This document shows positions 1 to 62,726 of a DNA stretch of 64,000 nt, piece by piece. The stretch comes from Escherichia phage dhabil: the sequence record MN850621.1; one strand, given 5' to 3'. Under the pieces are notes generated by a model. The model had not been told where the DNA came from. It saw only the letters and a program-made list of their open reading frames with translations, and did no database searches. Numbering within the stretch: position 1 is the stretch's first letter; the number at the start of each line of letters is the position of its first letter. The position numbers and the translations under genes were made by a program.

Positions 1-224
1 TCACCTGTAGCCACCAGTCCATCACCAGATTTTTCGATGAATCCTTTCTTAATCAATACACCAATGTTAGAGTTAACTACCGCAGCACTAAATTGTTCAC
101 TCAGGGCTTCGCGGACTTCGCCTGAAGTGATGAAGTTATTCTTGATGATATGTACTAAGATAGAAGCCGTTTTTTCATTCAGGACGTCTTCAGAAGCTTT
201 GATGATATAAGTAATTTTAGACAT
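1..224 (-). CDS. motA: MotA middle-transcription activator, N-terminal ~74 codons; rest of gene lies left of the window
   Basis: ATG at 222-224 with GGAG upstream; translation MSKITYIIKASEDVLNEKTAS...NSNIGVLIKKGFIEKSGDGL matches the T4 MotA N-terminal domain as I recall it. Confidence 0.8.
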   Translation of the reverse strand, partial: MSKITYIIKASEDVLNEKTASILVHIIKNNFITSGEVREALSEQFSAAVVNSNIGVLIKKGFIEKSGDGLVATG

Positions 225-247
225 TTTAATCTCCGATAACCATTTAT

Positions 248-287
248 TTGATAGGTCTATAGTATCATGTTTAAAGCAGAAGTAAAC
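248..287 (-). promoter_or_regulatory. T4-early-type promoter cassette for motA
   Basis: Minus strand GTTTAC (282-287), 17-nt spacer, TACTAT (259-264); contains the 20-mer core TTGATAGGTCTATAGTATCA. Confidence 0.6.
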
Positions 288-328: not shown

Positions 329-544
329 TTAGATTGATAGGTCTTTAATCTCGGCGATTAAAGCGGCTTTTCCTTCACGAAGTTTTTCCAGTTCACGACC
401 ATTAGAGCCGCGAACTACTAAGGAATTTATCTCCACTTCCAGCCAATTTAGTTTTTCAACTAGTTCTTTACGTTTAGCATTCATACCAGGTTTAACTTTA
501 CCGAAACGGATGGTAGCGTTTTGGGTATTTTTCATCTTATTCAT
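329..544 (-). CDS. hypothetical protein, 71 aa, basic
   Basis: ATG at 542-544, SD GGAG; sits between motA and gene 52. Confidence 0.5.
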   Translation of the reverse strand: MNKMKNTQNATIRFGKVKPGMNAKRKELVEKLNWLEVEINSLVVRGSNGRELEKLREGKAALIAEIKDLSI

Positions 545-572
545 TTTTGTATCTCCATTTCACTCTGTTGTT

Positions 573-612
573 TTGATAGGTCTATAGTATCATGTTTAAA
601 GCAGATGTAAAT
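573..612 (-). promoter_or_regulatory. T4-early-type promoter cassette
   Basis: Same 20-mer core as 248-267; minus-strand ATTTAC-N17-TACTAT; near-identical 40-bp copy of the element at 248-287. Confidence 0.55.
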
Positions 613-2520: not shown

Positions 2521-2969
2521 TAGTAAGCCTGCAGAACGAATTTGAAGTTATCGGCCAACATACGGTTCATTTCTTCCAGTGTCTGGAGGTCTGAACTATG
2601 GTTGCGAGTGAAAGCCATAGCGATTTGACCTTTACCGAAGCCTGTAGTCAGTGGTTTCATTTTAGAAGCCGGCACATAAAGAACTTCATACACAACACCA
2701 TTCACTGCCATAGTGCGAGCTGATTGTGAACGTTTCTTACGAATGTTAGCTACGATACCATCAAGACCTTGAGCTGAACGTTGGTTGCCGACATAAAAGC
2801 GTGCAGCTACGACACGAGAATCTGCTTCACCTTTAACAAAGAAGTAGAAGCCTGGCTGGGCTGAGATTTCTTTAGAAGGCTTACCATTTTGGTATTCGCC
2901 ATTCTTAACATAAGCAACAGTAGTAGCACCAGCAGACAGAACGTTACCGCGAGTCATATAAGTATTCAT
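2520..2969 (-). CDS. ndd: Ndd-like nucleoid disruption protein
   Basis: 149 aa, ATG at 2967-2969; size and position immediately upstream of stp match T4 ndd. Confidence 0.55.
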
Positions 2970-3010
2970 ATCAATTTCCTCAGTAGATTAATGTTTTGTT
3001 ATCCAGTCAA

Positions 3011-3047
3011 CGAGAACCATTATAACATGATTCTCGAGGTTGTAAAC
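3011..3047 (-). promoter_or_regulatory. early promoter with flanking inverted repeat
   Basis: Minus GTTTAC (3042-3047), N17, TATAAT (3019-3024); arms cgagaa/ttctcg flank the -10. Confidence 0.55.
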
Positions 3048-3651: not shown

Positions 3652-3777
3652 AATATTTTCCTCAGAAGTTAAAGAATACACGTACATGGTCAATCATAAA
3701 AACTATTGGGAAAATGCTCAATACAACCAATAACACAAACATGTTCCAAATTGCTTTAAGTAAGTTTTTCATAATCA

Positions 3778-3827
3778 TCTCCATTAGTTGATAGGTCTAT
3801 AATATCATGTCTAATGGAGATGTAAAC
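3778..3827 (-). promoter_or_regulatory. promoter cassette with RBS-pairing stem
   Basis: Minus GTTTAC (3822-3827), N17, TATTAT (3799-3804); 10-bp arms 3778-3787 / 3811-3820, right arm contains the SD GGAG. Confidence 0.6.
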
Positions 3828-4225
3828 ATTGATTGTTATCATTATTACTGGAAATAATATCACTCATATTAAGCGCCAGAACCTACTCAAACCCTGCGCT
3901 CCCAATTTCAAGGTTAGAGCGGTTGTCAAAGATTTTGCACCGACCTTTAACCTGGCTGGATGCGTAGAACTCCGCAGTTTCTTGAACATCAAAAGCATAC
4001 AACCTTGTTTCTAAATCGCGATAACGTGGTTCGCCGTTAAGTTCAAACCAAATCATAATAGTTACTGGGATCATTTTCGGGTTCCTTGTTTGTTGGTGTA
4101 TGAGTACTATAACATGCTAAATCTGAGATGTAAACTGATTTATGCTAATTTCCACAACAATAAACTAAAGCATATACAAATAATTGGAATACAAGTCATC
4201 CAAATAAGGCACCACGTTTTGCTAC

Positions 4226-4491
4226 TCAAAACACCACCTCTTTTATCTCAATCAATCCCCTGTGCAATGCGGTGCGAAGGTCATAAAGGATATCTATACC
4301 GTCAACATTATCCAGTTTACCGTCGATAAGTTTTTGTAAATCTTTTTTTGACGCTATCAAAGGGCGGAGAAATTTACATTCAGAAAGAGATAACTCTGTA
4401 GTAACATCATCACCTTCACCTGATGCATCATACATAGCGGCGACAACCATACCCGTAACTTTGTGTTTAGCGTAATATAATTTGATATCCA
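4226..4491 (-). CDS. hypothetical protein, 88 aa
   Basis: ORF-track start 4552 runs through the promoter; moved to ATG 4489-4491 with SD GAGGAG. Confidence 0.45.
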
Positions 4492-4509
4492 TTTTGTTCT
4501 CCTCATTAG

Positions 4510-4550
4510 TTGATAGGAAGATAGTAACACCATCCATGGCGTATGTAAAC
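4510..4550 (-). promoter_or_regulatory. T4-early-type promoter cassette
   Basis: Minus GTTTAC (4545-4550), N18, TACTAT (4521-4526); TTGATAGG core variant. Confidence 0.5.
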
Positions 4551-8995: not shown

Positions 8996-9305
8996 TTTTA
9001 ACTACCTCATGTTGAACATATTCTCTGGTAGAACCTAGTTCAGCCAGAATTCTTCTCATAGAACCCATTGTACTTTTGTGCTCTCTGTGGCGATACAATA
9101 TCTCTAGAACCTTTTCCTGGACAACGGGAGAGAGCGCCTGGTTATCTTTAATCTTTAAGGCAATAGATTTTACAGCCTTAAGGTATTCTAGTCCCTTACC
9201 GCTTGTAATCACTACTCCTTCATCTTTACAGTTACGAATAGCGGTTTCCATAAAGGATAAAGCCAAGTTGTCAGTGTTCACTATACTATTATCTTGCATA
9301 ATCAT
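8982..9305 (-). CDS. hypothetical protein, 107 aa
   Basis: ATG at 9303-9305; own promoter upstream. Confidence 0.45.
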   Translation of the reverse strand: MIMQDNSIVNTDNLALSFMETAIRNCKDEGVVITSGKGLEYLKAVKSIALKIKDNQALSPVVQEKVLEILYRHREHKSTMGSMRRILAELGSTREYVQHEVVKNDKL

Positions 9306-9324
9306 ATTCTCACCTCTTAGAGAA

Positions 9325-9353
9325 TCATATCACACTTTTAATCTGTTGTAAAC
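9325..9353 (-). promoter_or_regulatory. sigma70-like early promoter
   Basis: Minus GTTTAC (9348-9353), N17, TGaTATGAT extended -10 (9325-9330). Confidence 0.5.
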
Positions 9354-12342: not shown

Positions 12343-12553
12343 TGTAAGTTTCCTTCCAGAAGTCGGTGCCTTCAGCAGTGATTTCACGGAACACTGCATA
12401 GATAGGGTTTTTATCGCCTTGATTTTCGTATACATAAACCGACGATAAATGAGAAAACGTATCAGAATGTTCCTTTTGAACCACGATTAAATCAGGGTTG
12501 AACAGAACGTCTTCAAATTCTTCACGAGTCGAGTTCACAGTAACTTTAGCCAT
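12335..12553 (-). CDS. hypothetical protein, 72 aa
   Basis: ATG at 12551-12553. Confidence 0.45.
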   Translation of the reverse strand: MAKVTVNSTREEFEDVLFNPDLIVVQKEHSDTFSHLSSVYVYENQGDKNPIYAVFREITAEGTDFWKETYNA

Positions 12554-12572
12554 TTTATTTTCCTCTCATTTG

Positions 12573-12613
12573 TTGATAAGGTAATAGTATCACTACCCTA
12601 CCGTATTGTATAC
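12573..12613 (-). promoter_or_regulatory. promoter cassette variant with degenerate -35
   Basis: Core TTGATAAGGTAATAGTATCA with TACTAT -10; -35 is GTATAC at N18. Confidence 0.35.
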
Positions 12614-12626: not shown

Positions 12627-13190
12627 TTATGCACGATGAATATTAGCATACTCGACAATAAAGCTTTCAGGAACCACCTTAAAAGTTCCAAGGAACACGA
12701 TGTTATAAAGCTTAACGCCTTCTTCAACCCACTGGTCTGTGATGTAACCGGACATGCTGGTGGTTTCATAAGTACCGAAAAGTTCGTCATCGTATTCAAA
12801 CGGCTTAGGGGAAACGAAAAAGACACCTTGACCTAATTCCCATTTAAAATCAACACCCACATGAGACTGGTCGATAGTTTCAACGTCTTGAGCTACTACG
12901 CCACGGATATCATTGCTTTCACATACATACCCATCATGGGATTCAACTTCTTCAACCACTGGGGTATGAACAAGTTCAGGAACTATTGGACGCGCTTTCC
13001 AGCCCTTAGAAATCAAAGTGACATAGCGTTCTTTAACATAACCTACAGTTGAAGAAACGAAACCACTGGAACGAAATGCCTGGACTTTAACAAGACCACG
13101 AGAGAAATTGAATCCAATAATAATACATTTTTTACCAGCAACTTTAGATTTAGAATCTTCGGAAACCGATACGATATCACCAATTTTCAT
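12627..13190 (-). CDS. hypothetical protein, 187 aa; paralog of 13268-13816
   Basis: C-terminal motif GYITDQWVEEGVKLYNIVFLGTFKVVP shared with the next gene (WVTDQWIEDGVELLNVVHAGDFSVVP). Confidence 0.5.
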   Translation of the reverse strand: MKIGDIVSVSEDSKSKVAGKKCIIIGFNFSRGLVKVQAFRSSGFVSSTVGYVKERYVTLISKGWKARPIVPELVHTPVVEEVESHDGYVCESNDIRGVVAQDVETIDQSHVGVDFKWELGQGVFFVSPKPFEYDDELFGTYETTSMSGYITDQWVEEGVKLYNIVFLGTFKVVPESFIVEYANIHRA

Positions 13191-13230
13191 AATATTACCT
13201 TTTGTTTAGGAATTAGGTTTATTCTCCATA

Positions 13231-13265
13231 AGAGCCATTATAACATGGCTCTCGATAAAGTAAAC
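13231..13265 (-). promoter_or_regulatory. early promoter with flanking inverted repeat
   Basis: Minus GTTTAC (13260-13265), N17, TATAAT (13237-13242); arms agagccat/atggctct. Confidence 0.55.
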
Positions 13266-13818: not shown

Positions 13819-14322
13819 TTATCTCATTTCAATAAAATCTACGAGTTCAGCATGGGATTTGCGGAACATTACTTGGCGGTCACCAATGACTACCTCATCT
13901 TCAGGTATTTCGTAAACAGCAAGATAGAATCCTTTAGAAGATAATTCTTCGCGCTCTTCACGAGTGAACCAGCGCATCATATCATACTCGCTGGCAAAAG
14001 CAAAATGGTAGAGGTTAACAAACCAACCCGGAATATAATCGTCACAGTCTTCATAATCAGGTCGTTTCCACTTAGTTCTAATGGCTTTATTAGAATTTTC
14101 TACCAACAACTTATCTTGACTTGGTAGTGGGATATTTTTATTAATGCTATGATGATGTCTAAAAATAGGTCTGTCCAAACCTACTTCCAATAACCAGCCT
14201 TCACTCCATGAGTCTGTTGTACTTCTATACGGGGTCATTTGAGTACAGAGGTCTCGTCGTATTGTGATAGCGTTTCCATCATCTAAGATACTGAACGATG
14301 ACTCAACTCGATAAATTTTCAT
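13819..14322 (-). CDS. hypothetical protein, 167 aa
   Basis: ATG at 14320-14322 with SD GAGGAG. Confidence 0.45.
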   Translation of the reverse strand: MKIYRVESSFSILDDGNAITIRRDLCTQMTPYRSTTDSWSEGWLLEVGLDRPIFRHHHSINKNIPLPSQDKLLVENSNKAIRTKWKRPDYEDCDDYIPGWFVNLYHFAFASEYDMMRWFTREEREELSSKGFYLAVYEIPEDEVVIGDRQVMFRKSHAELVDFIEMR

Positions 14323-14329
14323 TTTGTTC

Positions 14330-14378
14330 TCCTCATGTTGATAGGGTAGATAATATCATGTCATGAGGAGAAGTAAAC
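14330..14378 (-). promoter_or_regulatory. promoter cassette with RBS-pairing stem
   Basis: Minus GTTTAC (14373-14378), N17, TATTAT; arms tcctcatg / catgagga. Confidence 0.55.
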
Positions 14379-16929: not shown

Positions 16930-17679
16930 TTAACCTCTAATCAGTGAAAAAATTGAAGCATTCAATGGAAGACCTTTTTTCAACTTCAATTTGTCAATAA
17001 AAGAAAGGTGTTCTAAACGCTCCAGACCTTGAATAATTTTATCATACATATCGTAACGCGTTTCTGCTTCAGACAATTTAAACTTGACACGCCAATCAGG
17101 CCCACCAATTAAAGATTTAAGACCTTTTTCCATAGTACCGATTGAAGCGTTAGAACCGTGGATACGGGCCTTAACTGCGATAACAGAAGGAGTCTTATCA
17201 GTAGCTCCTGATTTAATAAGGTCTTTAAGACGTTTTTCACGTTTTTTAAGACCTCTTTGGGTATCTTTTATATTTTTAACGATTTTACGGATTTTATAAT
17301 AGTTATCAGGAGTAACTTTAAAACTATTAGGCATTTTAGAACTACCTGAAATACGAACTGCTAAACGAGTCTGAGCACGTTTCAGTTCATCAAGGGACAA
17401 ATCGGCACGTAAGCTGTTATACTTAACTTTAACTGGGATTACATTACCCTCAATATAGCCGATATCGTTGTTAAAACGTTCAAATGAAATCTTGTCATTA
17501 ACTGAATTTTCATCAAAGTACTCGCCCGAATAAGCGCACACTTTTTGTTCGAGAAGTCTACGAACATACTTACTAGACAGATTGAAGTCCTTACCGCGTT
17601 TACAAGCAGAAGCTTTGGTGTGTTTGCGGCGGTTGTAAACCTTTAACTCAAATTCATCGTTAGTTTTAATAGTAGGCAT
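16930..17679 (-). CDS. hypothetical basic protein, 249 aa, at the position of T4 srd
   Basis: ATG at 17677-17679; Lys/Arg-rich C-terminal half; assignment by position and size only. Confidence 0.4.
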   Translation of the reverse strand: MPTIKTNDEFELKVYNRRKHTKASACKRGKDFNLSSKYVRRLLEQKVCAYSGEYFDENSVNDKISFERFNNDIGYIEGNVIPVKVKYNSLRADLSLDELKRAQTRLAVRISGSSKMPNSFKVTPDNYYKIRKIVKNIKDTQRGLKKREKRLKDLIKSGATDKTPSVIAVKARIHGSNASIGTMEKGLKSLIGGPDWRVKFKLSEAETRYDMYDKIIQGLERLEHLSFIDKLKLKKGLPLNASIFSLIRG

Positions 17680-17708
17680 GATATTTTTCTCATCTTACGG
17701 ACGATTAG

Positions 17709-17748
17709 TTGATAGGTCTATAGTATCATGTTGCTTAATAAAGTAAAC
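17709..17748 (-). promoter_or_regulatory. T4-early-type promoter cassette
   Basis: Exact core TTGATAGGTCTATAGTATCA; minus GTTTAC (17743-17748), N17, TACTAT. Confidence 0.6.
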
Positions 17749-17817: not shown

Positions 17818-18432
17818 TCAGTAAGAAAGAACGGAAAGATTCCATAATGTATAATCTTGCCATCCACAAACTCTCTCAATAGAGTCTACGCGTAGCGTAG
17901 TTCCCGCAGGGAACATCATCTCATCTTCATCGTTTACTAATTGCAAGTTTGAAGTACGAGTTATTTCTGGATATGGCCCGTTGAACTCTTCGGGAGGAGC
18001 GCCACAAATCATTTTAAAGATTGCTTCCTGGTAATCAAATGCAAAAGGTGCATCATTAATACAGAAAATATTTTTGGTTCCGTAAAAATTATATGAAGCA
18101 AAGTTACGGGCCACCTTAAAATCTTTAGAGAAGCTCATTACTCTGTCAAATTCAATTGTGGCACCAACACATCCTACCGATTCGAGGTATTTCAAAGTTT
18201 TCTTAGAAATTCCACGGTACAGTTTGTCAGGCACTACAGAAGTTAGATTCTTACGAATGATTTTGTTCAAAGTTTCTTGGATAGAATCAGGTTTATTTTC
18301 CATGCACTGCCAGAGGACACTCTGTTCTAAATCAGAGTACTGCCCGTCTATTTCACCCTGAATGTTTTCACGGAAATCATCACATTTAACATTGTCATAG
18401 AACTCTGATAATTTATGATTTGGATATAACAT
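17818..18432 (-). CDS. modA: ModA-like ADP-ribosyltransferase
   Basis: 204 aa; R-S-E pattern (LYRGIS, SFSKD, DEDEMMF); paralog of the adjacent gene; position as T4 modA. Confidence 0.55.
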   Translation of the reverse strand: MLYPNHKLSEFYDNVKCDDFRENIQGEIDGQYSDLEQSVLWQCMENKPDSIQETLNKIIRKNLTSVVPDKLYRGISKKTLKYLESVGCVGATIEFDRVMSFSKDFKVARNFASYNFYGTKNIFCINDAPFAFDYQEAIFKMICGAPPEEFNGPYPEITRTSNLQLVNDEDEMMFPAGTTLRVDSIERVCGWQDYTLWNLSVLSY

Positions 18433-18446
18433 ATTATTCTCCTCAG

Positions 18447-18487
18447 TTGATAGAAAGATAGTACCACAAGCATCCTTGCCTGTAAAC
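18447..18487 (-). promoter_or_regulatory. T4-early-type promoter cassette variant
   Basis: Minus GTTTAC (18482-18487), TACTAT (18457-18462), spacer about 19. Confidence 0.4.
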
Positions 18488-19056
18488 TAAAAATCTAACA
18501 TTTTTAAATGAATTATTTTGTACTCGATTTCGTATGGGTCTCTTTTGATAGTTTCGATTTCCACAATCTCGAACCGTGATAGACTAGAGACCATGAACTC
18601 ACATTCAGTTTCGACCATATCATAGAGGTCTATCCGGGTTTCATCTATTTCAAGTTCGTCCACATTCCCTGCAAGAACAAGGTCGATAGCATGATTGTAG
18701 TAGTCGAAAATGAACGGTGCATTCCTGAGACTTAAGATGGTTTTAGTTCCATATTCCCACGCCCCTGCGAACTGACGAGCCTGAGAGTATTGTGTACTAA
18801 AAGAAGTAACACGGCCGGGAGACCACTGGCATCCGACAGAAAGAACTTCAAGTTGCTCAAGTTCTCTTGGAGTAATCCCACGATAAAGCTCTACCGGAAC
18901 GACCGAAGTAACATGCTTACGAACTAGTTTGTCTAGGTCATAATGGAAGTTAGGGTCTTTTTTGGCATCCAGACATTTCTCTAACAACGCTTGTTCAGAT
19001 TTTGAAAATTTAGAATTGATTCGGTCTTGATAAAGACATTTTTGTTCGATGTTCAT
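18487..19056 (-). CDS. modB: ModB-like ADP-ribosyltransferase
   Basis: 189 aa; LYRGIT, SFSTQ, ECEFMV motifs parallel to the 17818-18432 paralog. Confidence 0.55.
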   Translation of the reverse strand: MNIEQKCLYQDRINSKFSKSEQALLEKCLDAKKDPNFHYDLDKLVRKHVTSVVPVELYRGITPRELEQLEVLSVGCQWSPGRVTSFSTQYSQARQFAGAWEYGTKTILSLRNAPFIFDYYNHAIDLVLAGNVDELEIDETRIDLYDMVETECEFMVSSLSRFEIVEIETIKRDPYEIEYKIIHLKMLDF

Positions 19057-19058
19057 AT

Positions 19059-19109
19059 GACCTCCAGTGATTTAGAGGTCATTATAACATGAAGGGAGGA
19101 GGTGTAAAC
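19059..19109 (-). promoter_or_regulatory. early promoter with RBS-proximal hairpin
   Basis: Minus GTTTAC (19104-19109), N17, TATAAT (19081-19086); inverted repeat gacctc/gaggtc next to the start codon. Confidence 0.6.
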
Positions 19110-20689: not shown

Positions 20690-20895
20690 AGGAAACCTCG
20701 TTTAAATTCAACTTTATCAATATCATCAGTCTCGTGACGGATTTCGGCATTAAATTCGACAGAACCGTCTTCATGCATCATAAATGAATGGACAATAACT
20801 TCGGTATACCAAGGAGTATAGAAGTACTTTTTCAATACGTGATTAGCGATAATTTCATCCAAAGTTTTATTTGGTTTAATCCAACGATTTAACAT
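20686..20895 (-). CDS. hypothetical protein, 69 aa
   Basis: ATG at 20893-20895, ATGA overlap with the downstream gene. Confidence 0.4.
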   Translation of the reverse strand: MLNRWIKPNKTLDEIIANHVLKKYFYTPWYTEVIVHSFMMHEDGSVEFNAEIRHETDDIDKVEFKRGFL

Positions 20896-20960
20896 AGTGT
20901 TCTCCTCTATAAGATAGGTCTATCTTAACTCGGTCCAATAAGAAAGTAAACCATTAAAAA

Positions 20961-24081: not shown

Positions 24082-24367
24082 CTGTCACCTCTTTAACAAT
24101 ATTTTTGTTATCGAAATTAGCATCACAGTACAGAACATAGTTATACTGCATAACACCACTAGAAGCCAATTGGTCAGATACTTCTTTAACCATATCAGGA
24201 CGGTCGCGTTTAGTGATGTTCATGATATCAGCGTAAATCTGATGTTCAACTGACTCTTGGTCTGCAGTCATAGACCATTCACAAAGGTCTTTATCCAATC
24301 CGGCAGTTACCGGAGCCGTGCCACATGATGCTACTGTAAGGATTGCTGCGATTAATAACTTTTTCAT
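24074..24367 (-). CDS. sp: Spackle-like periplasmic protein
   Basis: 97 aa with signal peptide MKKLLIAAILTVASCGTAP; size and position between 61 and dmd as T4 sp. Confidence 0.6.
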   Translation of the reverse strand: MKKLLIAAILTVASCGTAPVTAGLDKDLCEWSMTADQESVEHQIYADIMNITKRDRPDMVKEVSDQLASSGVMQYNYVLYCDANFDNKNIVKEVTGE

Positions 24368-24384
24368 TTTTAACTCCTCATTAG

Positions 24385-24426
24385 TTGATAAGGCCTATAG
24401 TATCACTACCATAGACCGTTGTAAAC
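24385..24426 (-). promoter_or_regulatory. T4-early-type promoter cassette
   Basis: Minus GTTTAC (24421-24426), N18, TACTAT (24397-24402); TTGATAAGG core variant. Confidence 0.5.
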
Positions 24427-25012: not shown

Positions 25013-25330
25013 TTAGATTTCCTCACAGAAGGCCCATTCAGCGTGATAAACCGTAGCGCCTTTGGTATCATTTAAACAAACCACATCTACCGGAGCAATT
25101 ACACGATAAAGACGAGGTTCTCCTCCCACCGAACGAGCAGCTCGTCCAGCATAAATCTTAGCCAAACCAATGTCCTCAGTAAAGAACACACGATTTAGGT
25201 TTTTCTTACGACCAGTTTCAGACAGAACTCCTGTTTCCTCAGGAGGACAAAGCATATTACCAATATTAGCAACACTACAACTTCCATGATAATACACTTT
25301 ATATTCTGCTTTACAGTCGATGGTTTTCAT
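25013..25330 (-). CDS. hypothetical protein, 105 aa
   Basis: ORF-track start 25342 lies in the promoter; moved to ATG 25328-25330 with SD GGAGAA; contains YYHGS motif. Confidence 0.4.
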   Translation of the reverse strand: MKTIDCKAEYKVYYHGSCSVANIGNMLCPPEETGVLSETGRKKNLNRVFFTEDIGLAKIYAGRAARSVGGEPRLYRVIAPVDVVCLNDTKGATVYHAEWAFCEEI

Positions 25331-25334
25331 TTTG

Positions 25335-25383
25335 TTCTCCAAGTTGATAGGTCTATAGTATCATGCCTACAGGAGAAGTAAAC
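25335..25383 (-). promoter_or_regulatory. promoter cassette with RBS-pairing arms
   Basis: Exact 20-mer core; minus GTTTAC (25378-25383), N17, TACTAT; arms ttctcc/ggagaa. Confidence 0.6.
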
Positions 25384-33415: not shown

Positions 33416-33648
33416 TGTTTAACGATAATGATTTGTGCGTTTGATTTACGTTCAGCGACGATAGCCCAGATTAAAGCCACTACCCAACCAATCATCGTCC
33501 ATCCTAACAGGAGATTAAGGAAGAAGATTCCGACATTGCTACGAGTGCCTCGCAGAAGAGCCAGAATCCATGGTAAAAAGTAACCAATGAACATAATAAC
33601 CAGAGAACCGAATCCTAAAACACCAGCACTAACGATTAAAGCTTCCAT
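33412..33648 (-). CDS. imm: Imm-like superinfection immunity membrane protein
   Basis: 78 aa, two predicted transmembrane helices; directly downstream of gene 43 as T4 imm. Confidence 0.6.
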   Translation of the reverse strand: MEALIVSAGVLGFGSLVIMFIGYFLPWILALLRGTRSNVGIFFLNLLLGWTMIGWVVALIWAIVAERKSNAQIIIVKQ

Positions 33649-33666
33649 TATAATTTCCTCATGTAG

Positions 33667-33708
33667 TTGATAGGAAGGATACTACCACGTTCCATGTGGT
33701 ATGTAAAC
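33667..33708 (-). promoter_or_regulatory. T4-early-type promoter cassette variant
   Basis: Minus GTTTAC (33703-33708), N18, TAGTAT. Confidence 0.45.
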
Positions 33709-45610: not shown

Positions 45611-45936
45611 TTAGCAGCCTTAACAATTTTCAGGTCAACGAATTTTTTCTTACGTTGATTCTTCATACGACGGATGGTTTTGTCCGTGATTTCACCCGGG
45701 CACCAAGCTTTAGATTCGACACCAAAGGCGGCCACATCAAACTCGTCGAGAATATATTGAACCAGGATTTCACGAATACCGTTCTTACCAATTTTTTGGT
45801 CTTTAGAGTGCATGATTGGTAACAGTTCAGCAACCCATTGGTCAAGAACCTGAGGAGTTACAAAGCCGGTTTTCATCAGTTCGTTAACTTTATCGAAAGC
45901 GAAAGAGTTCAGTACGTTTTTAATAGCTTGTGACAT
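45607..45936 (-). CDS. hypothetical protein, 109 aa
   Basis: ATG at 45934-45936; initiation region identical to that of the gene at 52456-53301. Confidence 0.45.
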   Translation of the reverse strand: MSQAIKNVLNSFAFDKVNELMKTGFVTPQVLDQWVAELLPIMHSKDQKIGKNGIREILVQYILDEFDVAAFGVESKAWCPGEITDKTIRRMKNQRKKKFVDLKIVKAAK

Positions 45937-45966
45937 AATAATTTCCTCAGTTTAAAATTTATAATC

Positions 45967-46005
45967 CGTGGGACCATTATACTCTGGTCCCAAGAGTTTG
46001 TAAAC
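45967..46005 (-). promoter_or_regulatory. early promoter with flanking inverted repeat
   Basis: Minus GTTTAC (46000-46005), N18, TATAAT (45976-45981); arms gggacc/ggtccc. Confidence 0.5.
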
Positions 46006-46205: not shown

Positions 46206-46337
46206 TTAAATTTTCCAGTTACCGTTTTCATCAATAAATTCAATCCAGTCATTTACTGACCACTTAGTCGTATCGCCTTTTGGAGCAACATTTAAAGTGT
46301 ATAATCCTTGTTTAAAAAGCATACGTTTGATATTCAT
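46206..46337 (-). CDS. hypothetical protein, about 43 aa
   Basis: ORF-track start overlaps the upstream gene by 86 nt; ATG at 46335-46337 with SD GAGGAAA used. Confidence 0.35.
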   Translation of the reverse strand: MNIKRMLFKQGLYTLNVAPKGDTTKWSVNDWIEFIDENGNWKI

Positions 46338-46344
46338 ACTTTCC

Positions 46345-46638
46345 TCAGCTGTAACGATAGCATTCGTTTGATTTACGTTTTGCAACTCGATGAGAAGTAT
46401 TGTAATCAGGTTCATCGTAGTTGTAAACATCTTTTTTCAGTTTTCTTACTTCTTTACGAAGTTGGCGGTTCATTTCATTCTTAACTTCAGAATCAACGCC
46501 ACGCATACGTTTCCACTTGTCAGATCGGAAGATATTTTCTTCAACTCGTTCCTGACTTACGCCATCTGGTGCTTTACGGCGTCCGGAATAATAAAAATCT
46601 TTTACAGACAATTCTTTACGACGGATAGTTTTACCCAT
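46345..46638 (-). CDS. hypothetical basic protein, 97 aa
   Basis: ATG at 46636-46638. Confidence 0.4.
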   Translation of the reverse strand: MGKTIRRKELSVKDFYYSGRRKAPDGVSQERVEENIFRSDKWKRMRGVDSEVKNEMNRQLRKEVRKLKKDVYNYDEPDYNTSHRVAKRKSNECYRYS

Positions 46639-46895: not shown

Positions 46896-47085
46896 AATTT
46901 AATTTCCTTAGCTATCGAACAAAATACACCACGGTCACAAATCATTTTAATATTAAGGTCAATTATGGTATACCACACGTCCAGGCTAGATATTTCAGTT
47001 ACTAGAACAGCTTTGCCGTTGATTGAATAATACTGGTTGACTTTAATTTCTTTATCTTGGATAGTCATAATGTTCTCCTCATGTG

Positions 47086-47126
47086 TTGATAGGATAGACT
47101 ATAACACGTGAGGAGAGGAAGTAAAC
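47086..47126 (-). promoter_or_regulatory. promoter cassette with RBS-pairing arms
   Basis: Minus GTTTAC (47121-47126), TATAGT at N16; arms cctcatgtg / cacgtgagg. Confidence 0.5.
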
Positions 47127-48529: not shown

Positions 48530-49030
48530 AATAAACCCTTACCATTATTAGATAAGGGTATTTATTAAACGTTATAAAATGAGCGATGCAACCTTTTAAA
48601 TTGACGAATCATCTTTTTGGTAGGACGGGTATATAATCCTACACAAGTGGCCATAAACTGGTCAGTAGGACTTCCTTTGATAAGAAGTTTCCAGACCTTG
48701 TCACCATTTAACTTTTCGGTATAGACTAATTTAGTTTTCATCAGAAGACCTCGTCAGAAAAGCGGAGTTGCGCTTCAAGCCAATGGATATAATCGGCTGC
48801 AGCTTTAATCAAATCAGACTCTAGGTCAGGTAAAGAACCCGAATCCGATAACTCGTAAAGCGAATGTTCAATCAGACGGCCTTTATGACGGCCAATTTCA
48901 ATTTTGGTACTCATATCCAAACTCCATATCGATTAAATCATTGTTTGAAGGTTCATTATACTCTATTTCGGAATCGTTGTAAACCGGTTCCTCTGGCTCG
49001 GTAGTTTCCCACCGAGCGACATACCACGGC

Positions 49031-50218: not shown

Positions 50219-51225
50219 TTCAACAGCTCCAGAGCTTGTTCAAGACGGTCTAAACGATTGGTAGACTCTTCCCAAAGTTTCTTGGCAGCGGTATATTGGC
50301 CAGTCAGTTTTTTGTTAATAGCAAGGGCATCTTTATACGCTTTTTCTAAGGCAACGATTTCCGGTAACTTGGATTTAGTAATTGGTGTAGGAGCCATGAT
50401 AGGGCTATTCAAGTCATTAATCAAGTCTTCTAATGTAGCAGGCTCTTTATCGGTGTTCACAATTTCCTCACATTTTTCTTGGTAAATTTCAGCATCGGTT
50501 TTTGGAACAGGACATTTGATTTCGCGGACTTTTACTAAGACCTCGTATCCTTTCCAGCCATAGAAATGTTTTACTTCTTGAGTCTCATATTTCTCTACTG
50601 TATCCATAAAAGCTAAGGCTTGTTCGATAATATTCAAGGTGTCGTAAGCAATATCTTGATACTTTACAACTTCCGCGTCATCTTTAGGTTTCCTATTAGG
50701 TGACCAAATAACAGAAATAATAGCTTTTCCTTTATAACTATTTGTTTTAATCATGCAATTAGCCATAGGGTGAATAGTACGGGAATCACCAGAAACTATG
50801 GTTTTAGAGGCCGCTTTGAGAATTAATGCAGAGTTAGCCTTAAATTCGCTAGTCCAACGCTGTGGAAATAGACCACTAGGATCCATACCTTTCATTTTGA
50901 TATAGCTTTTTAAAACATCACCAAACCATTGGTAGCTAACAACGTGGCTGGAACCTGGGTGTTTCTCTTTGCCAAACTCTGAAAGGATATCCTTATTAAC
51001 CAGCCGCGAAAGCAGTCGAGAACCTTTAAATGTATCTATGATATCAGGGATAAACAAACGCCCTGCAATCTTTTCTATTTCAGATTTAAAATACAGCGAC
51101 AAATCTTCGTCAATTTGGTCTACCCATTTATTGATATTAGAAACTATCACCTCATATGGGGTTAATGGAGGGGTATTGTCAGTGATATACGTAGTAAAGG
51201 CATTGATGTATTCAGTACGGGTCAT
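50215..51225 (-). CDS. hypothetical protein, about 336 aa
   Basis: ORF-track start 51285 lies in the promoter; moved to ATG 51223-51225 with SD AGGAG; C-terminal coiled-coil-like tail. Confidence 0.45.
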   Translation of the reverse strand: MTRTEYINAFTTYITDNTPPLTPYEVIVSNINKWVDQIDEDLSLYFKSEIEKIAGRLFIPDIIDTFKGSRLLSRLVNKDILSEFGKEKHPGSSHVVSYQWFGDVLKSYIKMKGMDPSGLFPQRWTSEFKANSALILKAASKTIVSGDSRTIHPMANCMIKTNSYKGKAIISVIWSPNRKPKDDAEVVKYQDIAYDTLNIIEQALAFMDTVEKYETQEVKHFYGWKGYEVLVKVREIKCPVPKTDAEIYQEKCEEIVNTDKEPATLEDLINDLNSPIMAPTPITKSKLPEIVALEKAYKDALAINKKLTGQYTAAKKLWEESTNRLDRLEQALELLK

Positions 51226-51242
51226 GATATTCTCCTCAGTAG

Positions 51243-51283
51243 TTGATAAAAGGATTATACTCCATCCGTCCTTGGATGTAAAC
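51243..51283 (-). promoter_or_regulatory. T4-early-type promoter cassette variant
   Basis: Minus GTTTAC (51278-51283), N18, TATAAT (51254-51259). Confidence 0.5.
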
Positions 51284-53364: not shown

Positions 53365-53889
53365 TTATGCGAGAACCGTCTTTAAACGCTCTTCAAATTT
53401 CTGAAGCAGAGCTTGGCGTTCAGCTCGTTGTGATTTGTACTGCTCGATACGACCTGAAGTGAGGGCGTACTGTTCGTTTACTGATTCCCGCATAAATTCA
53501 GGAATCTCTTTACAAGCTTTGATTTCGTCAAACTTATCAATAACCGCTTGTTGTTCGGCAATTAAGTTATCAAAATAAGCGATATCTGATTTAACGTTTG
53601 CCAGGTCAGATTCAGTAGGCATTAAACGTTTATTACGCTCAGCTTGATAAGCTTGGTTGGTTTCACGACTCCAGTGAAGAGTACGTTTTTTGTTGGTGTT
53701 TTTGTAGAGCTCTACAATACCAACTGAATCGATGACAGCAATCCAGTTCCAACGGCTTTTGTAAATCTCTCCTCCAGATACGGTAATCTCATTACCACAA
53801 GCAACGTCATTAAAGAACTTGCTTTGTTTTTCGGATTTGAAATTACCATTGTTAAAATTAATCAGTGAAAAAATATCTTTAGCGTTCAT
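53365..53889 (-). CDS. hypothetical protein, 174 aa
   Basis: ATG at 53887-53889; coiled-coil-like C-terminus. Confidence 0.45.
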   Translation of the reverse strand: MNAKDIFSLINFNNGNFKSEKQSKFFNDVACGNEITVSGGEIYKSRWNWIAVIDSVGIVELYKNTNKKRTLHWSRETNQAYQAERNKRLMPTESDLANVKSDIAYFDNLIAEQQAVIDKFDEIKACKEIPEFMRESVNEQYALTSGRIEQYKSQRAERQALLQKFEERLKTVLA

Positions 53890-53895
53890 GATAAC

Positions 53896-53944
53896 CTCCA
53901 GTAGTTGATAGGTCTATAGTATCATTTCTACTGGAGATGTAAAC
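53896..53944 (-). promoter_or_regulatory. promoter cassette with RBS-pairing stem
   Basis: Exact 20-mer core; minus GTTTAC (53939-53944), N17, TACTAT; 9-bp arms ctccagtag / ctactggag. Confidence 0.6.
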
Positions 53945-54298: not shown

Positions 54299-55279
54299 TT
54301 ATTTCAGAAGTGTAACTTCAGCGATTTCGCTCCAGTCATTTTTATCGGTGGCAATGAAGTCCGCCAGGTAAAGAGCCGTGCGTAATGATACGTTACGAAG
54401 ACGAGATACATTGGCCTTCATCCATGCTAGAGCTTGATAAGTCTCAGCATCAGTCAGACCTCGGTTTTGCATCATATCAGTGGACAGGATAACGTCTTCA
54501 ACACGAACCATAATCTCTTCATTCGAGTGAACTCCGAGGTCTAAGTAAACCGAACGAGATACTAAAGCCTGGAGGTGTGGAGCAAGTTTAGTTCCACGCT
54601 CTAATTCACGGTCAATGTCAACGTTGGTGATGAACACGATGGTGCCTTCGTATTCGAATTCTTTATCGATATTTTTATCATCGAGATAAGAACTTGAAGT
54701 GCTCCAGCACACCTTACGTTTCTCACCGGTATCCAATGCGGCTTTAAGAAGGTTCAGGATATCCATGTCAGAGAATACATCAACATCATCAATAAGAAGA
54801 ACACTATTAGGGCCGCGGTTATTCCAAAGCTGCTCGTAAAGACCGATTCCACTAATCTTTCCGTTGATTGATTTATATTCGATAGTTTCATTTTCGTGGG
54901 CATTTTGTAATGCTTTATCTAAAGAGTAGGTTTTACCAATACCTGCGGCACCAGAGATGATAAGGGAACGAATTTTACCATCGATGATTCCGTTAGTCAT
55001 CATGTTCATTACTTTAAAACGTTTGTTGATGCGATGTTTCATTTCTTCAGAGGATTCGGTAACCATTACAGGAGCTTCAGCACCTTCCATTTCAACGTCA
55101 CATTTGAACACCCACACACCACGTTCAACACCATCAATCTGTACGAATACCTTGCCATCACCGAGGTGAGCTTCAGATTCATGAATTTTATTAGGGAACC
55201 AGGTTTTACCTGAACTCATGAACGTACCAGAGATTTCATTACCGCGATAGATACCTTTGTTGATTTTGATAGTTAACAT
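54299..55279 (-). CDS. P-loop NTPase (AAA-like), about 326 aa
   Basis: Walker A ISGAAGIGKTYS, Walker B VLLIDDVD; start moved from 55366 (inside the promoter) to ATG 55277-55279 with SD GGAGAA. Confidence 0.55.
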   Translation of the reverse strand: MLTIKINKGIYRGNEISGTFMSSGKTWFPNKIHESEAHLGDGKVFVQIDGVERGVWVFKCDVEMEGAEAPVMVTESSEEMKHRINKRFKVMNMMTNGIIDGKIRSLIISGAAGIGKTYSLDKALQNAHENETIEYKSINGKISGIGLYEQLWNNRGPNSVLLIDDVDVFSDMDILNLLKAALDTGEKRKVCWSTSSSYLDDKNIDKEFEYEGTIVFITNVDIDRELERGTKLAPHLQALVSRSVYLDLGVHSNEEIMVRVEDVILSTDMMQNRGLTDAETYQALAWMKANVSRLRNVSLRTALYLADFIATDKNDWSEIAEVTLLK

Positions 55280-55306
55280 TATATTCTCCGTTTCACTCAG
55301 TAGATT

Positions 55307-55345
55307 TGATAGGTCCATAATAACATGCTCTACGAGAGGGTAAAC
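55307..55345 (-). promoter_or_regulatory. T4-early-type promoter cassette
   Basis: Core TTGATAGGTCCATAATAACA; minus GTTTAC (55340-55345), N17, TATTAT. Confidence 0.55.
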
Positions 55346-58561: not shown

Positions 58562-58792
58562 TTAAATTTTTTCGAATAATGCCAAAGCTTTTTCGATAGC
58601 TACAGATTTAGTACCAATAACCATTTTAGGCTGTGATTGGAACTTAGTAGCTTCATAAACTTCTAAACCAGTTACTTTACCGTTTTGTTCGATAATAGCA
58701 AAGGTAGCGTTTTCAAAATCTTCAGCTTTAACTTTAAGTGCTTTAGAAGCTTTAGCGATATCGATAACTTTCAGGTTGGTGATGGTTTTCAT
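58562..58792 (-). CDS. hypothetical protein, 76 aa
   Basis: ATG at 58790-58792; first gene after the promoter at 58801-58849. Confidence 0.45.
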   Translation of the reverse strand: MKTITNLKVIDIAKASKALKVKAEDFENATFAIIEQNGKVTGLEVYEATKFQSQPKMVIGTKSVAIEKALALFEKI

Positions 58793-58800
58793 TTTATTCT

Positions 58801-58849
58801 CCTCATTAGTTGATAGGTCTATAGTATCACGTTCCTAGAGGATGTAAAC
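58801..58849 (-). promoter_or_regulatory. T4-early-type promoter cassette
   Basis: Exact 20-mer core; minus GTTTAC (58844-58849), N17, TACTAT. Confidence 0.6.
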
Positions 58850-62259: not shown

Positions 62260-62718
62260 TTAAAGATAGATTACTTTCGTGCTGGTTTTACCTTCTAAAC
62301 GTTTAGAATTAACAAATGCCATACGACATTTTAATGAATATCCTTTATCAGGATGTTTACGATCTACGGTCATACCCAACCATAAGGTTTTATCGGTAAT
62401 CTCGAGACGCAGTGGACGATACACTTTACCTGGGACAATTTCAGATTCTATGTCAGGAAGAGGCTCCTGGATTAAAAATTCATGGATTTCTTTAACATGA
62501 TTGTGGAGCTTCTTGAACAAAGAGAAAACATATTTTTCGTCAATTTCACGTTGGATAGCACGGTCCAACAAGTGATTAGAGTACTTAATAAAGAAAGCTG
62601 GGACACCGCTCTTAATGGCGGCTTTTTTGATGGACGCGTTAAGTTCACGAAATTCGGTTTCGAACTGACGACGTAATTTGTTGCGGCGGATGAATACTTC
62701 TGAATTAATTTCTGACAT
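62260..62718 (-). CDS. regB: RegB site-specific endoribonuclease
   Basis: 152 aa; EVFIRRNKLRRQFETEFRELN...HLLDRAIQREIDEKYVF...YRPLRLEITDKTLWLG matches T4 RegB as recalled. Confidence 0.7.
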   Translation of the reverse strand: MSEINSEVFIRRNKLRRQFETEFRELNASIKKAAIKSGVPAFFIKYSNHLLDRAIQREIDEKYVFSLFKKLHNHVKEIHEFLIQEPLPDIESEIVPGKVYRPLRLEITDKTLWLGMTVDRKHPDKGYSLKCRMAFVNSKRLEGKTSTKVIYL

Positions 62719-62726
62719 TTTGTAAT

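Follow-up and report, generated by a model that had tools for sequence, protein, structure and literature searches.

The sequence at 3777-3827 on the minus strand of Escherichia phage dhabil (MN850621.1) raises the question of whether a promoter whose spacer is complementary to the ribosome-binding site just downstream can confine translation of its gene to the RNA that starts at that promoter, and whether this is a general property of promoters of its kind. The window, which is the whole stretch of 64,000 nt that was analysed, is the early-gene region of a Dhakavirus, a T4-like coliphage; it has 98% identity to Dhakavirus CLB_P2 and dhaeg, and its genes follow the order of the T4 early region. 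In the early regions of T4-like phages, genes stand in long one-strand arrays where promoters are many and terminators few, and most genes therefore lie on several overlapping transcripts. If a hairpin embedded in its promoter silences every transcript of a gene but its own, that gene is expressed as an independent unit within a narrow time window and needs no terminator for this; cassettes that phages exchange by shuffling would be well served by a module so self-contained. The reading favoured here, to which a probability of roughly 0.6 is assigned, is that the locus belongs to a family of early sigma-70 promoter cassettes in which a gene-specific subset carries an inverted repeat that confines translation to own-promoter RNA. 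It is built on the sequence architecture, a predicted folding difference, covariation, and conservation at the same genes of T4.

The pattern GTTTAC-N16-18-TAnnnT has 24 matches on the minus strand of the window and none on the plus strand, whereas shuffled sequence gives 1.7 on average and 6 at most. Two extra cassettes have a -35 hexamer with one mismatch (ATTTAC in 612 and GTATAC in 12613, each cassette being named by its upper coordinate), which brings the total to 26, all on the minus, coding strand; the “about 20” of the original prediction was therefore a fair count. A cassette occupies approximately 60-90 bp and consists, in order, of an A-rich UP-like tract, GTTTAC, a spacer of 17-18 nt, TGn-TAnnnT, a leader of about 20 nt, GGAG and ATG. 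The consensus just 5' of the -35 is aaaaaa, with an A+T content of 73% compared to the window average of 61%; the extended -10 (TG at -15/-14) is present in 21 of the 26, TATCAA lies at about +1 in 17, and AGACCTATC directly follows the -10 in nine. Many cassettes have an A-rich run between GGAG and ATG, and GGAGAAnAAAA occurs in cassette leaders. The 20-mer TTGATAGGTCTATAGTATCA is found exactly at 248, 573, 17709, 25344, 53905 and 58810, with one mismatch at 3788 and 62736 (all eight positions as originally listed), and with three mismatches at 55306, while shuffled sequences gave no match. The same promoter motif occurs in T4 at the orthologues of regB, motB.2, modB, nrdC.8, motB, srd and the imm-region genes. 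On sequence criteria, then, the cassettes are T4-type early (host sigma-70) promoters. An Rfam scan of the whole window returned no family match.

Table 1. Coordinates of the focal locus and of the early-promoter cassettes of the window (classes and ddG are defined in the text).
Feature	Coordinates	Strand	ddG (kcal/mol)	Remarks
Focal -35 hexamer GTTTAC	3822..3827	-
Focal 5' arm ATCTCCATTAG	3811..3821	-		first 11 nt of the 17-nt spacer; contains anti-SD CTCC
Focal -10 hexamer TATTAT	3799..3804	-		preceded by TGA (extended -10)
Focal conserved discriminator/leader AGACCTATCAA	3788..3798	-		predicted start ~3792
Focal 3' arm CTAATGGAGAT	3777..3787	-		contains Shine-Dalgarno GGAG
Focal downstream gene, 36-aa hydrophobic ORF (MKNLLKAIWNMF...)	3662..3772	-
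regB cassette, class A	62716..62775	-	9.5	arms 62759-62769 / 62725-62735
nrdC.8-like cassette, class A	53887..53944	-	14.1	arms 53928-53938 / 53894-53904
58-aa ORF cassette, class A	47066..47126	-	12.2	-10 TATAGT; arms 47104-47116 / 47074-47086, 13 bp, one C-A mismatch
modB cassette	19054..19109	-	12.9	8-bp stem
modB 5' arm ATGACCTC	19075-19082	-		in -10 end and discriminator
modB 3' arm GAGGTCAT	19057-19064	-		adjoins ATG
motB.2 cassette, class A	14320..14378	-	15.2	arms 14362-14372 / 14327-14337
Exact-20-mer cassette	58790..58849	-	3.1	behind intrinsic terminator; TCCTC/GAGGA remnant
nrdC.10-like cassette	55277..55345	-		behind terminator; ribosome site not occluded
nrdC.4-like cassette	51223..51283	-	3.8	TATCAAC leader
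pin-like gene early-promoter match	48912..48984	-		inside upstream coding sequence; T4 counterpart 47452
Early-promoter match, 55-nt leader	46335..46428	-		inside 55.5-like coding sequence; least certain member
55.2-like cassette, class B	45934..46005	-		TGGGACC/GGTCCCA stem across -10
imm-like cassette	33646..33708	-	5.2	spacer-internal hairpin
Exact-20-mer cassette	25328..25383	-	4.7	behind terminator; 5' arm TTCTCCTGTAG retained, 3' arm shortened to CTTGGAGAA
sp (spackle) cassette, class B	24365..24426	-		11-bp stem across -10, z = -4.5
mrh.2-like cassette	20893..20951	-		behind terminator
modA cassette	18430..18487	-		spacer-internal hairpin, flagged by terminator scan
srd cassette, exact 20-mer	17677..17748	-		ribosome site not occluded
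motB cassette, class B	13188..13265	-		GAGAGCC/GGCTCTT stem across -10, z = -6.5
cef cassette, class B	12551..12613	-		-35 GTATAC; stem across -10, z = -4.2
Cassette	9303..9353	-		behind terminator-like hairpin; short 12-nt leader
88-aa ORF cassette	4490..4550	-		TATCAAC leader
63-aa ORF cassette	4072..4135	-		-10 TATAGT
ndd cassette, class B	2967..3047	-		CGAGAATC/GGTTCTCG stem across -10
Exact-20-mer cassette	542..612	-		-35 ATTTAC; behind terminator; left flank of 71-aa gene
motA cassette, exact 20-mer	222..287	-		right flank of 71-aa gene indel

The stems within the cassettes are of more than one kind. A significant hairpin, either local or reaching the Shine-Dalgarno sequence, is found in about 14 of the 26 cassettes, and the others have no clear stem. 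In class A a stem formed by the spacer or the discriminator hides the Shine-Dalgarno sequence, while in class B the stem spans only the -10. The occluding stem, a pairing of 8-13 bp between the spacer or discriminator and the Shine-Dalgarno region, is present in six of the 26: regB, nrdC.8-like, motB.2, modB, the 58-aa ORF and the focal 36-aa ORF. The original prediction had stated that the spacer pairs with the downstream ribosome-binding site in many copies, and had listed four pairs. Those four (focal, motB.2, nrdC.8-like and regB) are indeed perfect 11-bp complements, with one G-U in the nrdC.8-like pair, and there are two further stems, at 47126 (13 bp, one mismatch) and 19109 (8 bp); but “many” does not hold for strong stems, which are absent from 20 of the 26 cassettes, several of which have stems across the -10 only or lie behind an intrinsic terminator. 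The stem therefore does not define the cassette. Only a CTCC-type remnant is present in cassettes 58849, 55345 and 25383, and the idea that the anti-SD CTCC is a requirement of the promoter was rejected, since the class B and terminator-type cassettes have no CTCC in their spacers. At the focal cassette an inner helix is also possible between TATCA of the leader and TGATA of the extended -10. The 36-aa ORF downstream is annotated in CLB_P2 and carries no annotation in dhaeg, and the nearest upstream source of read-through is the cassette at 4072..4135.

To evaluate the effect of the stems on the ribosome site, the cost of opening positions -13 to +3 was computed for the read-through and the promoter-started RNA, and ddG was taken as the first minus the second, with the start set, on the T4 model, 7 nt past the -10. 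The 5' arm then spans -30 to -20 relative to this predicted start, or -8 to -1 in modB. In the folding calculation the opening cost in the six occluding cassettes is 11-19 kcal/mol for read-through RNA and 1.7-3.9 kcal/mol for promoter-started RNA, so that ddG is about 9.5-15 kcal/mol. None of 100 spacer shuffles reaches the observed value in five of the six cassettes, folds computed separately by the folding tool agree, and among 73 control genes without a cassette none has a difference of at least 9 kcal/mol, the maximum being 7.9 (Fisher p = 1.7e-4). The predicted contrast between a hidden site in read-through RNA and an open one in own-promoter RNA is thus borne out by folding in six cassettes and in none of the 73 controls, but it does not extend to the other 20 of the 26.

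The mechanism that would follow can be stated simply. RNA reading through from an upstream promoter would hold both arms, which would form a hairpin of 8-13 bp and bury the ribosome-binding site, while RNA from the cassette's own promoter would start about 7 nt past the -10, lack the upstream arm and leave the site open. Because only the own-promoter RNA would have an open site, translation is expected only from the gene's own early promoter. The genes of the subset would then be translated only during the first minutes of infection, and on the longer read-through transcripts of the early or middle period they would be present but untranslated. For about a quarter of the cassettes, then, it is probably only the promoter-started RNA that would be translated. 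Where transcription starts, that read-through RNA exists and how translation responds are all inferred from the sequence and its predicted folds.

The existence of read-through RNA depends on what lies between the promoters, and here the role that the literature assigns to PeSL stem-loops must be considered, namely that they are terminators or attenuators of upstream transcription and that their overlap with the Shine-Dalgarno sequence is incidental. In RB49/phi1 termination by PeSL stem-loops has been shown experimentally, and the PeSL211/210 stem-loop cut lacZ expression as strongly as rrnB T1 (PMC2839356); in the window, the terminator scan marks the spacer hairpin at 18464-18485 as terminator-like on account of the T-rich -10 that comes after it. 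None of the class A stems is flagged by the scan; they have interiors of 23-24 nt and no U-tract past the 3' arm, the tails being GAUUAUG, UACAAAAUG and CAAAAUG; and the 3' arm is always the GGAG region, which the covarying part of the stem tracks. True terminators, assigned by eye from folds together with the terminator scan and recognizable by UUCG loops and T runs, are separate structures upstream of cassettes outside class A: the six cassettes directly behind a clear terminator (58849, 55345, 25383, 20951, 9353 and 612) all have no strong occluding stem, and the scan placed no strong intrinsic terminator between any class A cassette and the next early promoter upstream. A terminating role for the class A stems is therefore improbable.

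If complementary arms are maintained because they pair in RNA, then substitutions in one arm should be matched in the other. When 10 paralogous and orthologous cassettes are aligned, five of the 11 stem pairs have changed on both sides, and 91.8% of cells are paired compared to 76% in shuffles (0 of 500 reach the observed value) and at most 58% when the partner is slid. One lineage (L060) has three substitutions in the 5' arm, all of which keep or repair pairs. In T4 itself, the regB stem is 15 bp (TTTTCCTCTTGACTG/CAGTTAAGAGGAGAA), the nrdC.8 stem is GTTCCTCTGTGGT/ACTACGGAGGAAC, the motB.2 stem is TCCTCGGT(T)AG/CTACTGAGGA, and the modB arm lies in the discriminator, as it does in the window; the opening-cost difference is 12-16.5 kcal/mol in all four. 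Another lineage (L027) has TTTCTCCTCTTTATG/CATAAAGAGGAGAAA at regB. In T4 and other genera the same genes thus have their predicted occluding stems rebuilt from other sequences, and the covariation together with this cross-genus conservation supports the occlusion of read-through RNA that the folds predict. The occlusion must be dispensable, since the regB or nrdC.8 stem is lost in some lineages (L018-20 and L038-40), which have a -10-only stem instead.

Complementary arms could also be a functionless by-product of the spread of a palindromic cassette and of its homogenisation by recombination or gene conversion. There is a palindrome in the conserved core itself (TGATA...TATCA), the T4 ipII-denV cassette (-35 at 65413) is almost identical to the regB cassette of the window, and cassettes do recombine. 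vB_EcoM_005 lacks a 71-aa gene that lies at 329-544 between cassettes 612 and 287, and has a single hybrid cassette in its place, which is the one clean gene gain or loss between two cassettes and supports the recombinational shuffling that had been proposed; elsewhere a cassette has been replaced (L057), a chimeric cassette has formed (L041), and flanks diverge at the -35. The comparison with vB_EcoM_005 (NC_055783) uses only its larger differences, as this record contains about 25 deletions of almost exactly 100 nt that were judged artefactual. Rearrangement junctions support the proposal at this one indel, but gaps between relatives show no significant excess near cassettes (two of nine against dhaeg and one of four against CLB_P2), in small numbers. 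Homogenisation does not account well for arms that vary between cassettes yet remain complementary, with five pairs changed on both sides, for an occluding stem kept at the same genes in T4 and other genera with unrelated arms, or for spacer shuffles that fall short of the observed occlusion, and there is accordingly only a small chance that the complementarity is functionless.

Another possibility is that the hairpin mainly governs the fate of the RNA, by shielding GGAG from RegB or host RNases or by acting as a processing or stability element. T4 early leaders contain the RegB/S1 cleavage site GGAGAAUAAAA (Durand et al. 2006, PMC1702504); cleavage by RegB requires a single-stranded site of 11 nt, GGAG followed by an A-rich run, and GGAGs in stable structures resist it (PMC1702504). 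The leaders described here have GGAGAAnAAAA, and regB is itself one of the class A genes. A buried Shine-Dalgarno sequence, however, would block 30S binding regardless of RegB, as at gene e (PMC3014915), and denV, which is class A in T4, is a poor RegB substrate (PMC1702504). An effect on RNA fate is compatible with translational occlusion and does not exclude it; as the main role of the hairpin it is unlikely. The two may be combined in a more speculative scheme, which is possible but favoured well below the main reading: in T4-like phages a conserved, gene-specific “pulse” circuit would strictly tie translation of regB, motB.2, nrdC.8, modB, denV and some small ORFs to their own immediate-early promoters, with GGAG doubling as a RegB target when single-stranded, so that promoter-started RNA would be translated and then cut while read-through RNA would be silent and RegB-resistant. 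If this scheme is true, one class of PeSL stem-loop would count as translational insulators and no longer as terminators, and the shut-off of immediate-early protein synthesis despite continuing transcription across the genes would be easier to explain. The main reading, too, bears on this shut-off and gives a reading of part of the PeSL stem-loops that experiment can address; it is relevant to the engineering of T4-like therapeutic phages such as CLB_P2.

Two explanations are less likely still. In the first, translational coupling, the 5' arm would be melted by ribosomes that finish the upstream gene, and translation of read-through RNA would depend on upstream translation. In regB, nrdC.8, motB.2 and the 58-aa gene the upstream stop codon does precede the -35 by 1-5 nt and the 5' arm by 8-11 nt, and the upstream stop of modB overlaps the -35. 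On established ribosome geometry, however, unwinding at about +11 from the P site would reach approximately 5-9 nt past the stop, which would leave the arms just outside; the focal cassette has 55 nt between stop and -35, and the relevant modB arm is about 30 nt 3' of the stop. Terminating ribosomes might partly open the hairpin in the four of six cases with a stop 8-11 nt before the 5' arm, but coupling as the general explanation is very improbable. Equally remote is a role for the repeat as DNA, either as the operator of a dimeric repressor that shuts off early promoters, a shut-off which is not understood in T4 (PMC3014915), or as a cruciform that promotes recombination: the arms do flank the -10 and the start site, but most cassettes have no such repeat, and arms which are unconserved between cassettes except for CTCC/GGAG, which covary, and which tolerate G-U (53944 and T4 regB) indicate RNA pairing and not protein recognition of DNA.

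The reading in which occlusion confines translation to own-promoter RNA can now be set against known systems. T4 early promoters have a UP/-35/TGn/-10 architecture (Hinton 2010, PMC2988021) with GTTTAC at -36 to -31 (Nolan et al. 2006, PMC1524935). The cassettes share GTTTAC, the 17-18-nt spacer, TGn, TAnnAT, the upstream A tract and the same genes, so that the promoter itself does not differ; neither of these two papers mentions inverted repeats at T4 early promoters. PeSL cassettes have been described in RB49/phi1 (Arbiol et al. 2010, PMC2839356) and in PST/T4 and nt-1/KVP40 (Comeau et al. 2014, PMC4122927), where the published role of the stem is that of a terminator or attenuator and a recombination site. 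Their elements (AT-rich tract, early promoter, stem-loop, Shine-Dalgarno sequence and start codon) are all found in the window, likewise in repeated intergenic modules, with a stem-loop often between or across the -35 and -10, flanking small variable ORFs and with gene gain or loss between two cassettes; the RB49 stems differ in consisting of a G-run and a C-run, and the PST/T4 figures draw the stems just 5' of the promoter. Judged by composition, the cassettes are the T-even counterpart of the published PeSL or PeSL-like cassettes, and the likeness originally proposed is upheld by their T4 early-promoter architecture and their location at T4 orthologues (PMC2988021, PMC1524935). Pairing between spacer and Shine-Dalgarno sequence, or an effect on translation, is described in neither PeSL paper, and the 2010 text never uses the word “translation”. 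In the same phage group and with the same promoter type, a T-even early promoter of about 70 bp with an overlapping inverted repeat flanks the internal-protein genes and, as summarised in PMC2839356, was described as a recombination substrate that shuffles them (Repoila et al. 1994). The RegB/S1 site, present in many cassettes as GGAG and an A-rich run, is a separate layer on the same nucleotides, and would act only when these are single-stranded.

For the nested arrangement there is a precedent in the T4 genes e, soc, 49 and I-TevI, where a ribosome-binding-site hairpin contains a late promoter in its 5' strand (Uzan and Miller 2010, PMC3014915), with a 100-fold effect for the lysozyme gene e (PMC3014915). 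In the window, the gene 49 homologue has this late-promoter arrangement at 48535-48568 with the variant TAATAAATA; there is no exact match to TATAAATA 5' of soc or gene 49, and a reading of the sequence shows no obvious ribosome-binding-site hairpin at soc. The nested-promoter principle is already textbook for T4 late genes, and the advance is incremental. No description of an early-promoter version was found in a search whose scope stopped short of the older T4 literature (Liebig and Ruger 1989; Repoila et al. 1994; Miller et al. 2003). The likeness is that long transcripts would bury the Shine-Dalgarno sequence or AUG here too, while RNA from the nested promoter, which lacks the 5' strand, would be translated. 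The differences are that the arm here lies in the -35/-10 spacer, that the element belongs to a cassette that is repeated and mobile, and that the nested promoter is an early sigma-70 promoter and not a gp55 late promoter (TATAAATA). The subset would therefore be a variant of the T4 design, and not a member of the described late-promoter set, with its timing inverted: expression would fall in the first minutes, instead of being postponed to late infection.

Annotation of phage dhaeg and the gene order of T4 identify the window as the classical T4-type early region: the genes run motA, 52, ndd, denB, rIIB, rIIA, 39, cef, motB, motB.2, dexA, dda, srd, modA, modB, soc, 56, 61, sp, 41, uvsX, 43, 45, 46/47, 55, 49, nrdC.x, tk, regB and vs, all on the minus strand. 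The Escherichia phages CLB_P2 and dhaeg (Dhakavirus, Tevenvirinae) are 98% identical to a 4-kb query around the focal cassette (3827; cassettes are named by the position of their -35 element), and CLB_P2 matches the whole window at 98.6% identity in five alignment blocks. In both phages the 5' part of motB (12962-13215), directly downstream of cassette 13265, is swapped for a stretch of the same length (about 251 nt) that does not align. Behind the focal cassette lies a 36-aa hydrophobic ORF (3662-3772, minus strand), which is annotated in CLB_P2 (89890-90000) and absent from the dhaeg annotation; ORF and cassette are conserved jointly in several Dhakavirus genomes. The RefSeq record of a further relative, vB_EcoM_005 (NC_055783.1), shows, relative to the window, some 25 deletions that are dispersed in coding regions and each measure almost exactly 100 nt; these look like products of faulty assembly (the record has 155 kb, its relatives about 170 kb).

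The focal site reads, on the minus strand, GTTTAC-ATCTCCATTAGACATGA-TATTAT-AGACCTATCAA-CTAATGGAGAT-GATT-ATG. Matches to GTTTAC-N16-18-TAnnnT number 24 on the minus strand and zero on the plus strand, compared with 1.7 in shuffled sequence, and two sites with a one-mismatch -35 bring the cassette total to 26. An A-rich tract directly upstream of the -35 is common to cassettes; TG at -15/-14 is present in 21 of the 26, TATCAA at about +1 in 17, and AGACCTATC directly after the -10 in nine. The leaders, which are 18-25 nt long in most cassettes, carry GGAG ahead of the ATG in 17/26 cases and GGAGAA in 9/26. The original prediction had placed copies of a shared 20-mer, and every position was exactly right; the window holds six exact copies, two at one mismatch and one at three mismatches, and shuffles hold none. 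The 20-mer (3788-3807 and other copies) is an imperfect palindrome, TGATA-CTATAGACC-TATCA, which gives the read-through hairpin an inner 5-bp helix. Conservation of (C)TATCAAC at about +1 extends to sites that cannot pair in this way and to many early promoters of T4.

The four arm pairs singled out in the prediction, in which the promoter spacer (5' arm) complements the Shine-Dalgarno region (3' arm), are each perfect over 11 bp; the cassette and the pairing are therefore confirmed, but the statement that pairing occurs in many copies was too strong, since strong Shine-Dalgarno pairing is found in 6/26. The opening cost, defined as the free energy needed to make start-region positions -13 to +3 single-stranded, was computed per cassette for two RNAs: a read-through RNA, which enters from an upstream promoter and was modelled with its 5' end 40 nt upstream of the -35, and a promoter-started RNA, with its 5' end 7 nt past the -10.

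Predicted cost of opening the ribosome site at the six occluding cassettes (minus strand; kcal/mol)
Cassette	Gene	Read-through RNA	Promoter-started RNA
62775	regB	11.2	1.8
53944	nrdC.8-like	17.7	3.6
47126	58-aa ORF	14.9	2.7
19109	modB	14.8	1.9
14378	motB.2	19.1	3.9
3827 (focal)	36-aa ORF	15.3	1.7

As controls, 73 cassette-free genes of the minus strand were folded in the same geometry: the difference between the two RNAs peaks at 7.9 kcal/mol and is below 9 in all of them (Fisher p = 1.7e-4). With shuffled spacers, the observed value is reached by 0/100 shuffles at every occluding cassette except modB, where shuffling has no effect because the 5' arm, made up of the final two -10 bases and the discriminator, lies outside the spacer. 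A separate RNA fold calculation returned the same structures, together with the inner TGATA/TATCA helix made by the conserved 20-mer. Opening a promoter-started leader also costs less than opening an ordinary ribosome site (2.8 vs 4.3 kcal/mol, p = 0.003).

The best-supported reading is the one originally proposed, in which a gene is silenced in read-through RNA and open in promoter-started RNA; we infer where transcription starts, that read-through RNA exists and how translation is affected. The large predicted folding difference that underlies this reading is confined to the six cassettes; in the other 20 the difference is at most 6 kcal/mol. An RNA crossing such a cassette from upstream would hold both arms, burying the Shine-Dalgarno, while an RNA begun at the cassette would lack the upstream arm. 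A role in RNA stability or in shielding from RegB is compatible with this reading rather than opposed to it. The RegB/S1 target is GGAG followed by an A-rich run and must be single-stranded (PMC1702504), and the stretch from Shine-Dalgarno to ATG matches the consensus GGAGAAUAAAA (for example at 58795-58805, 18435-18445, 14325-14335 and 4495-4505); we therefore propose that promoter-started RNA would be cleavable and read-through RNA protected. The regB gene itself (62260-62718) is one of the six occluded genes.

Translational coupling to the upstream gene is possible, given that the upstream stop codon lies 8-11 nt ahead of the 5' arm in four cases, but this distance is just past the expected unwinding reach of a terminating ribosome, and at the focal cassette the gap is 55 nt. 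A terminator or attenuator role, as demonstrated for an RB49 stem-loop (PMC2839356), fits the stems that pair with the Shine-Dalgarno poorly: they have no U-tract, they enclose an interior of 23-24 nt, and none of them was flagged by the terminator scan. Nor did the scan find a strong terminator on the way from the next upstream early promoter to any of the six occluding cassettes. Clear intrinsic terminators (UUCG-type loop and T run) stand directly ahead of six cassettes (58849, 55345, 25383, 20951, 9353 and 612), none of which has a strong occluding stem; in three of them, all that is left of it is a CTCC remnant or a 3' arm cut short. The complementary pattern of terminator and occluding stem is suggestive, and the numbers are small. 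The cassettes at about 612-660 and 55345-55395 (minus strand) share a longer module, in which a UUCG-loop terminator is followed by TTTTTTGG(G)TTTAGTGCAAAAAAG and then the promoter, so the repeat unit can include a terminator. Some seven cassettes have a significant hairpin only across the -10 or within the spacer (z < -3 at 46005, 24426, 13265, 12613 and 3047), matching the commonest geometries of published promoter-early stem-loops (PeSLs).

Selection on the pairing was evaluated in an alignment of ten distinct cassettes of the same geometry, comprising window paralogues, Dhakavirus orthologues and T4 denV. Both sides have changed at 5/11 stem pairs, and 91.8% of cells are paired, compared with 76% in shuffles (0/500 as high) and at most 58% with the partner column slid. 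Further orthologous loci were taken from IMG/VR; in one (L060), the cassette of the 58-aa gene has three 5'-arm substitutions, each of which keeps or repairs a pair. At motB.2, Dhakavirus has the stem TTCTCCTCATG/CATGAGGAGAA, and T4 and another lineage have TCCTCGGT(T)AG/CTACTGAGGA, with a computed difference of 11-17 kcal/mol in 11/11 loci, and the regB arms are ATCTCCTGTAG/CTACAGGAGAT in the window, TTTCTCCTCTTTATG/CATAAAGAGGAGAAA in locus L027 and TTTTCCTCTTGACTG/CAGTTAAGAGGAGAA in T4. The first 76 kb of T4 contain 24 early-type promoters, and the difference is at least 9 kcal/mol at regB, nrdC.8, motB.2, modB, denV, e.8 and one at 70359; occlusion is therefore seen again at corresponding genes in different genera, although the arm sequences differ. 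Occlusion is not universal: loci L018-20 and L038-40 have a -10-spanning stem at regB or nrdC.8, and L057 has a GGGG/CCCC stem over the -35 ahead of an identical 58-aa protein. A DNA operator is unlikely, since the arms covary, accept G-U pairs and have just CTCC/GGAG in common. That the pairing is a functionless by-product of cassette recombination is contradicted by the covariation and by the re-creation of the stem across genera. The T4 cassette with its -35 at 65413 (L032/L033), between ipII and denV, is almost identical to that of window regB (ATCTCCTGTAG...AGACCTATCAACTACAGGAGA) but lies ahead of denV, and denV has a cassette with Shine-Dalgarno pairing in Dhakavirus genomes too.

Recombinational shuffling, which had also been suggested, has one clean example, and breakpoint enrichment at cassettes was not formally demonstrable with two reliable comparators (dhaeg and CLB_P2). 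The 71-aa gene (329-544) lies between near-identical cassettes, 612 (542-612) and 287 (222-287), whereas in vB_EcoM_005 the gene is missing and only one cassette, a hybrid, is present; this is the topology described for PeSL-mediated excision (PMC2839356), and the difference is a PeSL-type insertion or deletion. The nrdC.8 cassette of L041 (IMG/VR 641509422, about 540-600) is chimeric, its 5' half identical to the focal type and its 3' half to the 53944 type, with one stem base pair lost, and is evidence of exchange between cassettes. In L057 the cassette has been replaced, and at regB and the focal site, divergence of the cassette flanks sets in a few bases or less from the -35. In dhaeg (L031, about 1108-1317; window 62781) an extra 207-nt ORF without its own promoter stands between the upstream stop codon and the regB cassette, with its junction 5 nt upstream of the -35. 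In IMG/VR, Dhakavirus contigs alone carry the exact 21-mer core, in several copies per genome; T4 has one copy, at denV.

The window promoters are ordinary T4-type early promoters. Repoila et al. (1994) reportedly described a T-even early promoter overlapped by an inverted repeat, a layout which the window cassettes match. The cassettes are, as was recognised at the outset, of the PeSL type (PMC2839356, PMC4122927); those papers treat the stems as terminators and say nothing about translation. Pairing between spacer and Shine-Dalgarno, with its implication, was not found in the accessible literature, although older papers may mention it, and a 2010 review of T4 post-transcriptional control covers just late-promoter and homing-endonuclease cases (PMC3014915). 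In T4 genes e, soc, 49 and I-TevI, an inhibitory hairpin carries a late promoter in its 5' strand, and long transcripts yield 100-fold less lysozyme (PMC3014915). The window's gene 49 homologue (ATG at 48529) has this arrangement at 48535-48568 on the minus strand, with a late-promoter-like TAATAAATA followed by a hairpin, ACCCTTAT.../...GTAAGGGT, over its Shine-Dalgarno region. The predicted logic of the six occluding cassettes is the same, but their nested promoter is early instead of late, so the timing would be reversed, with translation just while early promoters fire; on read-through RNA made later and on middle transcripts (PMC2988021), the gene would be present but silent. The Shine-Dalgarno-pairing version of the cassette is real but affects about a quarter of the cassettes, and it is an early-promoter form of a known T4 design.
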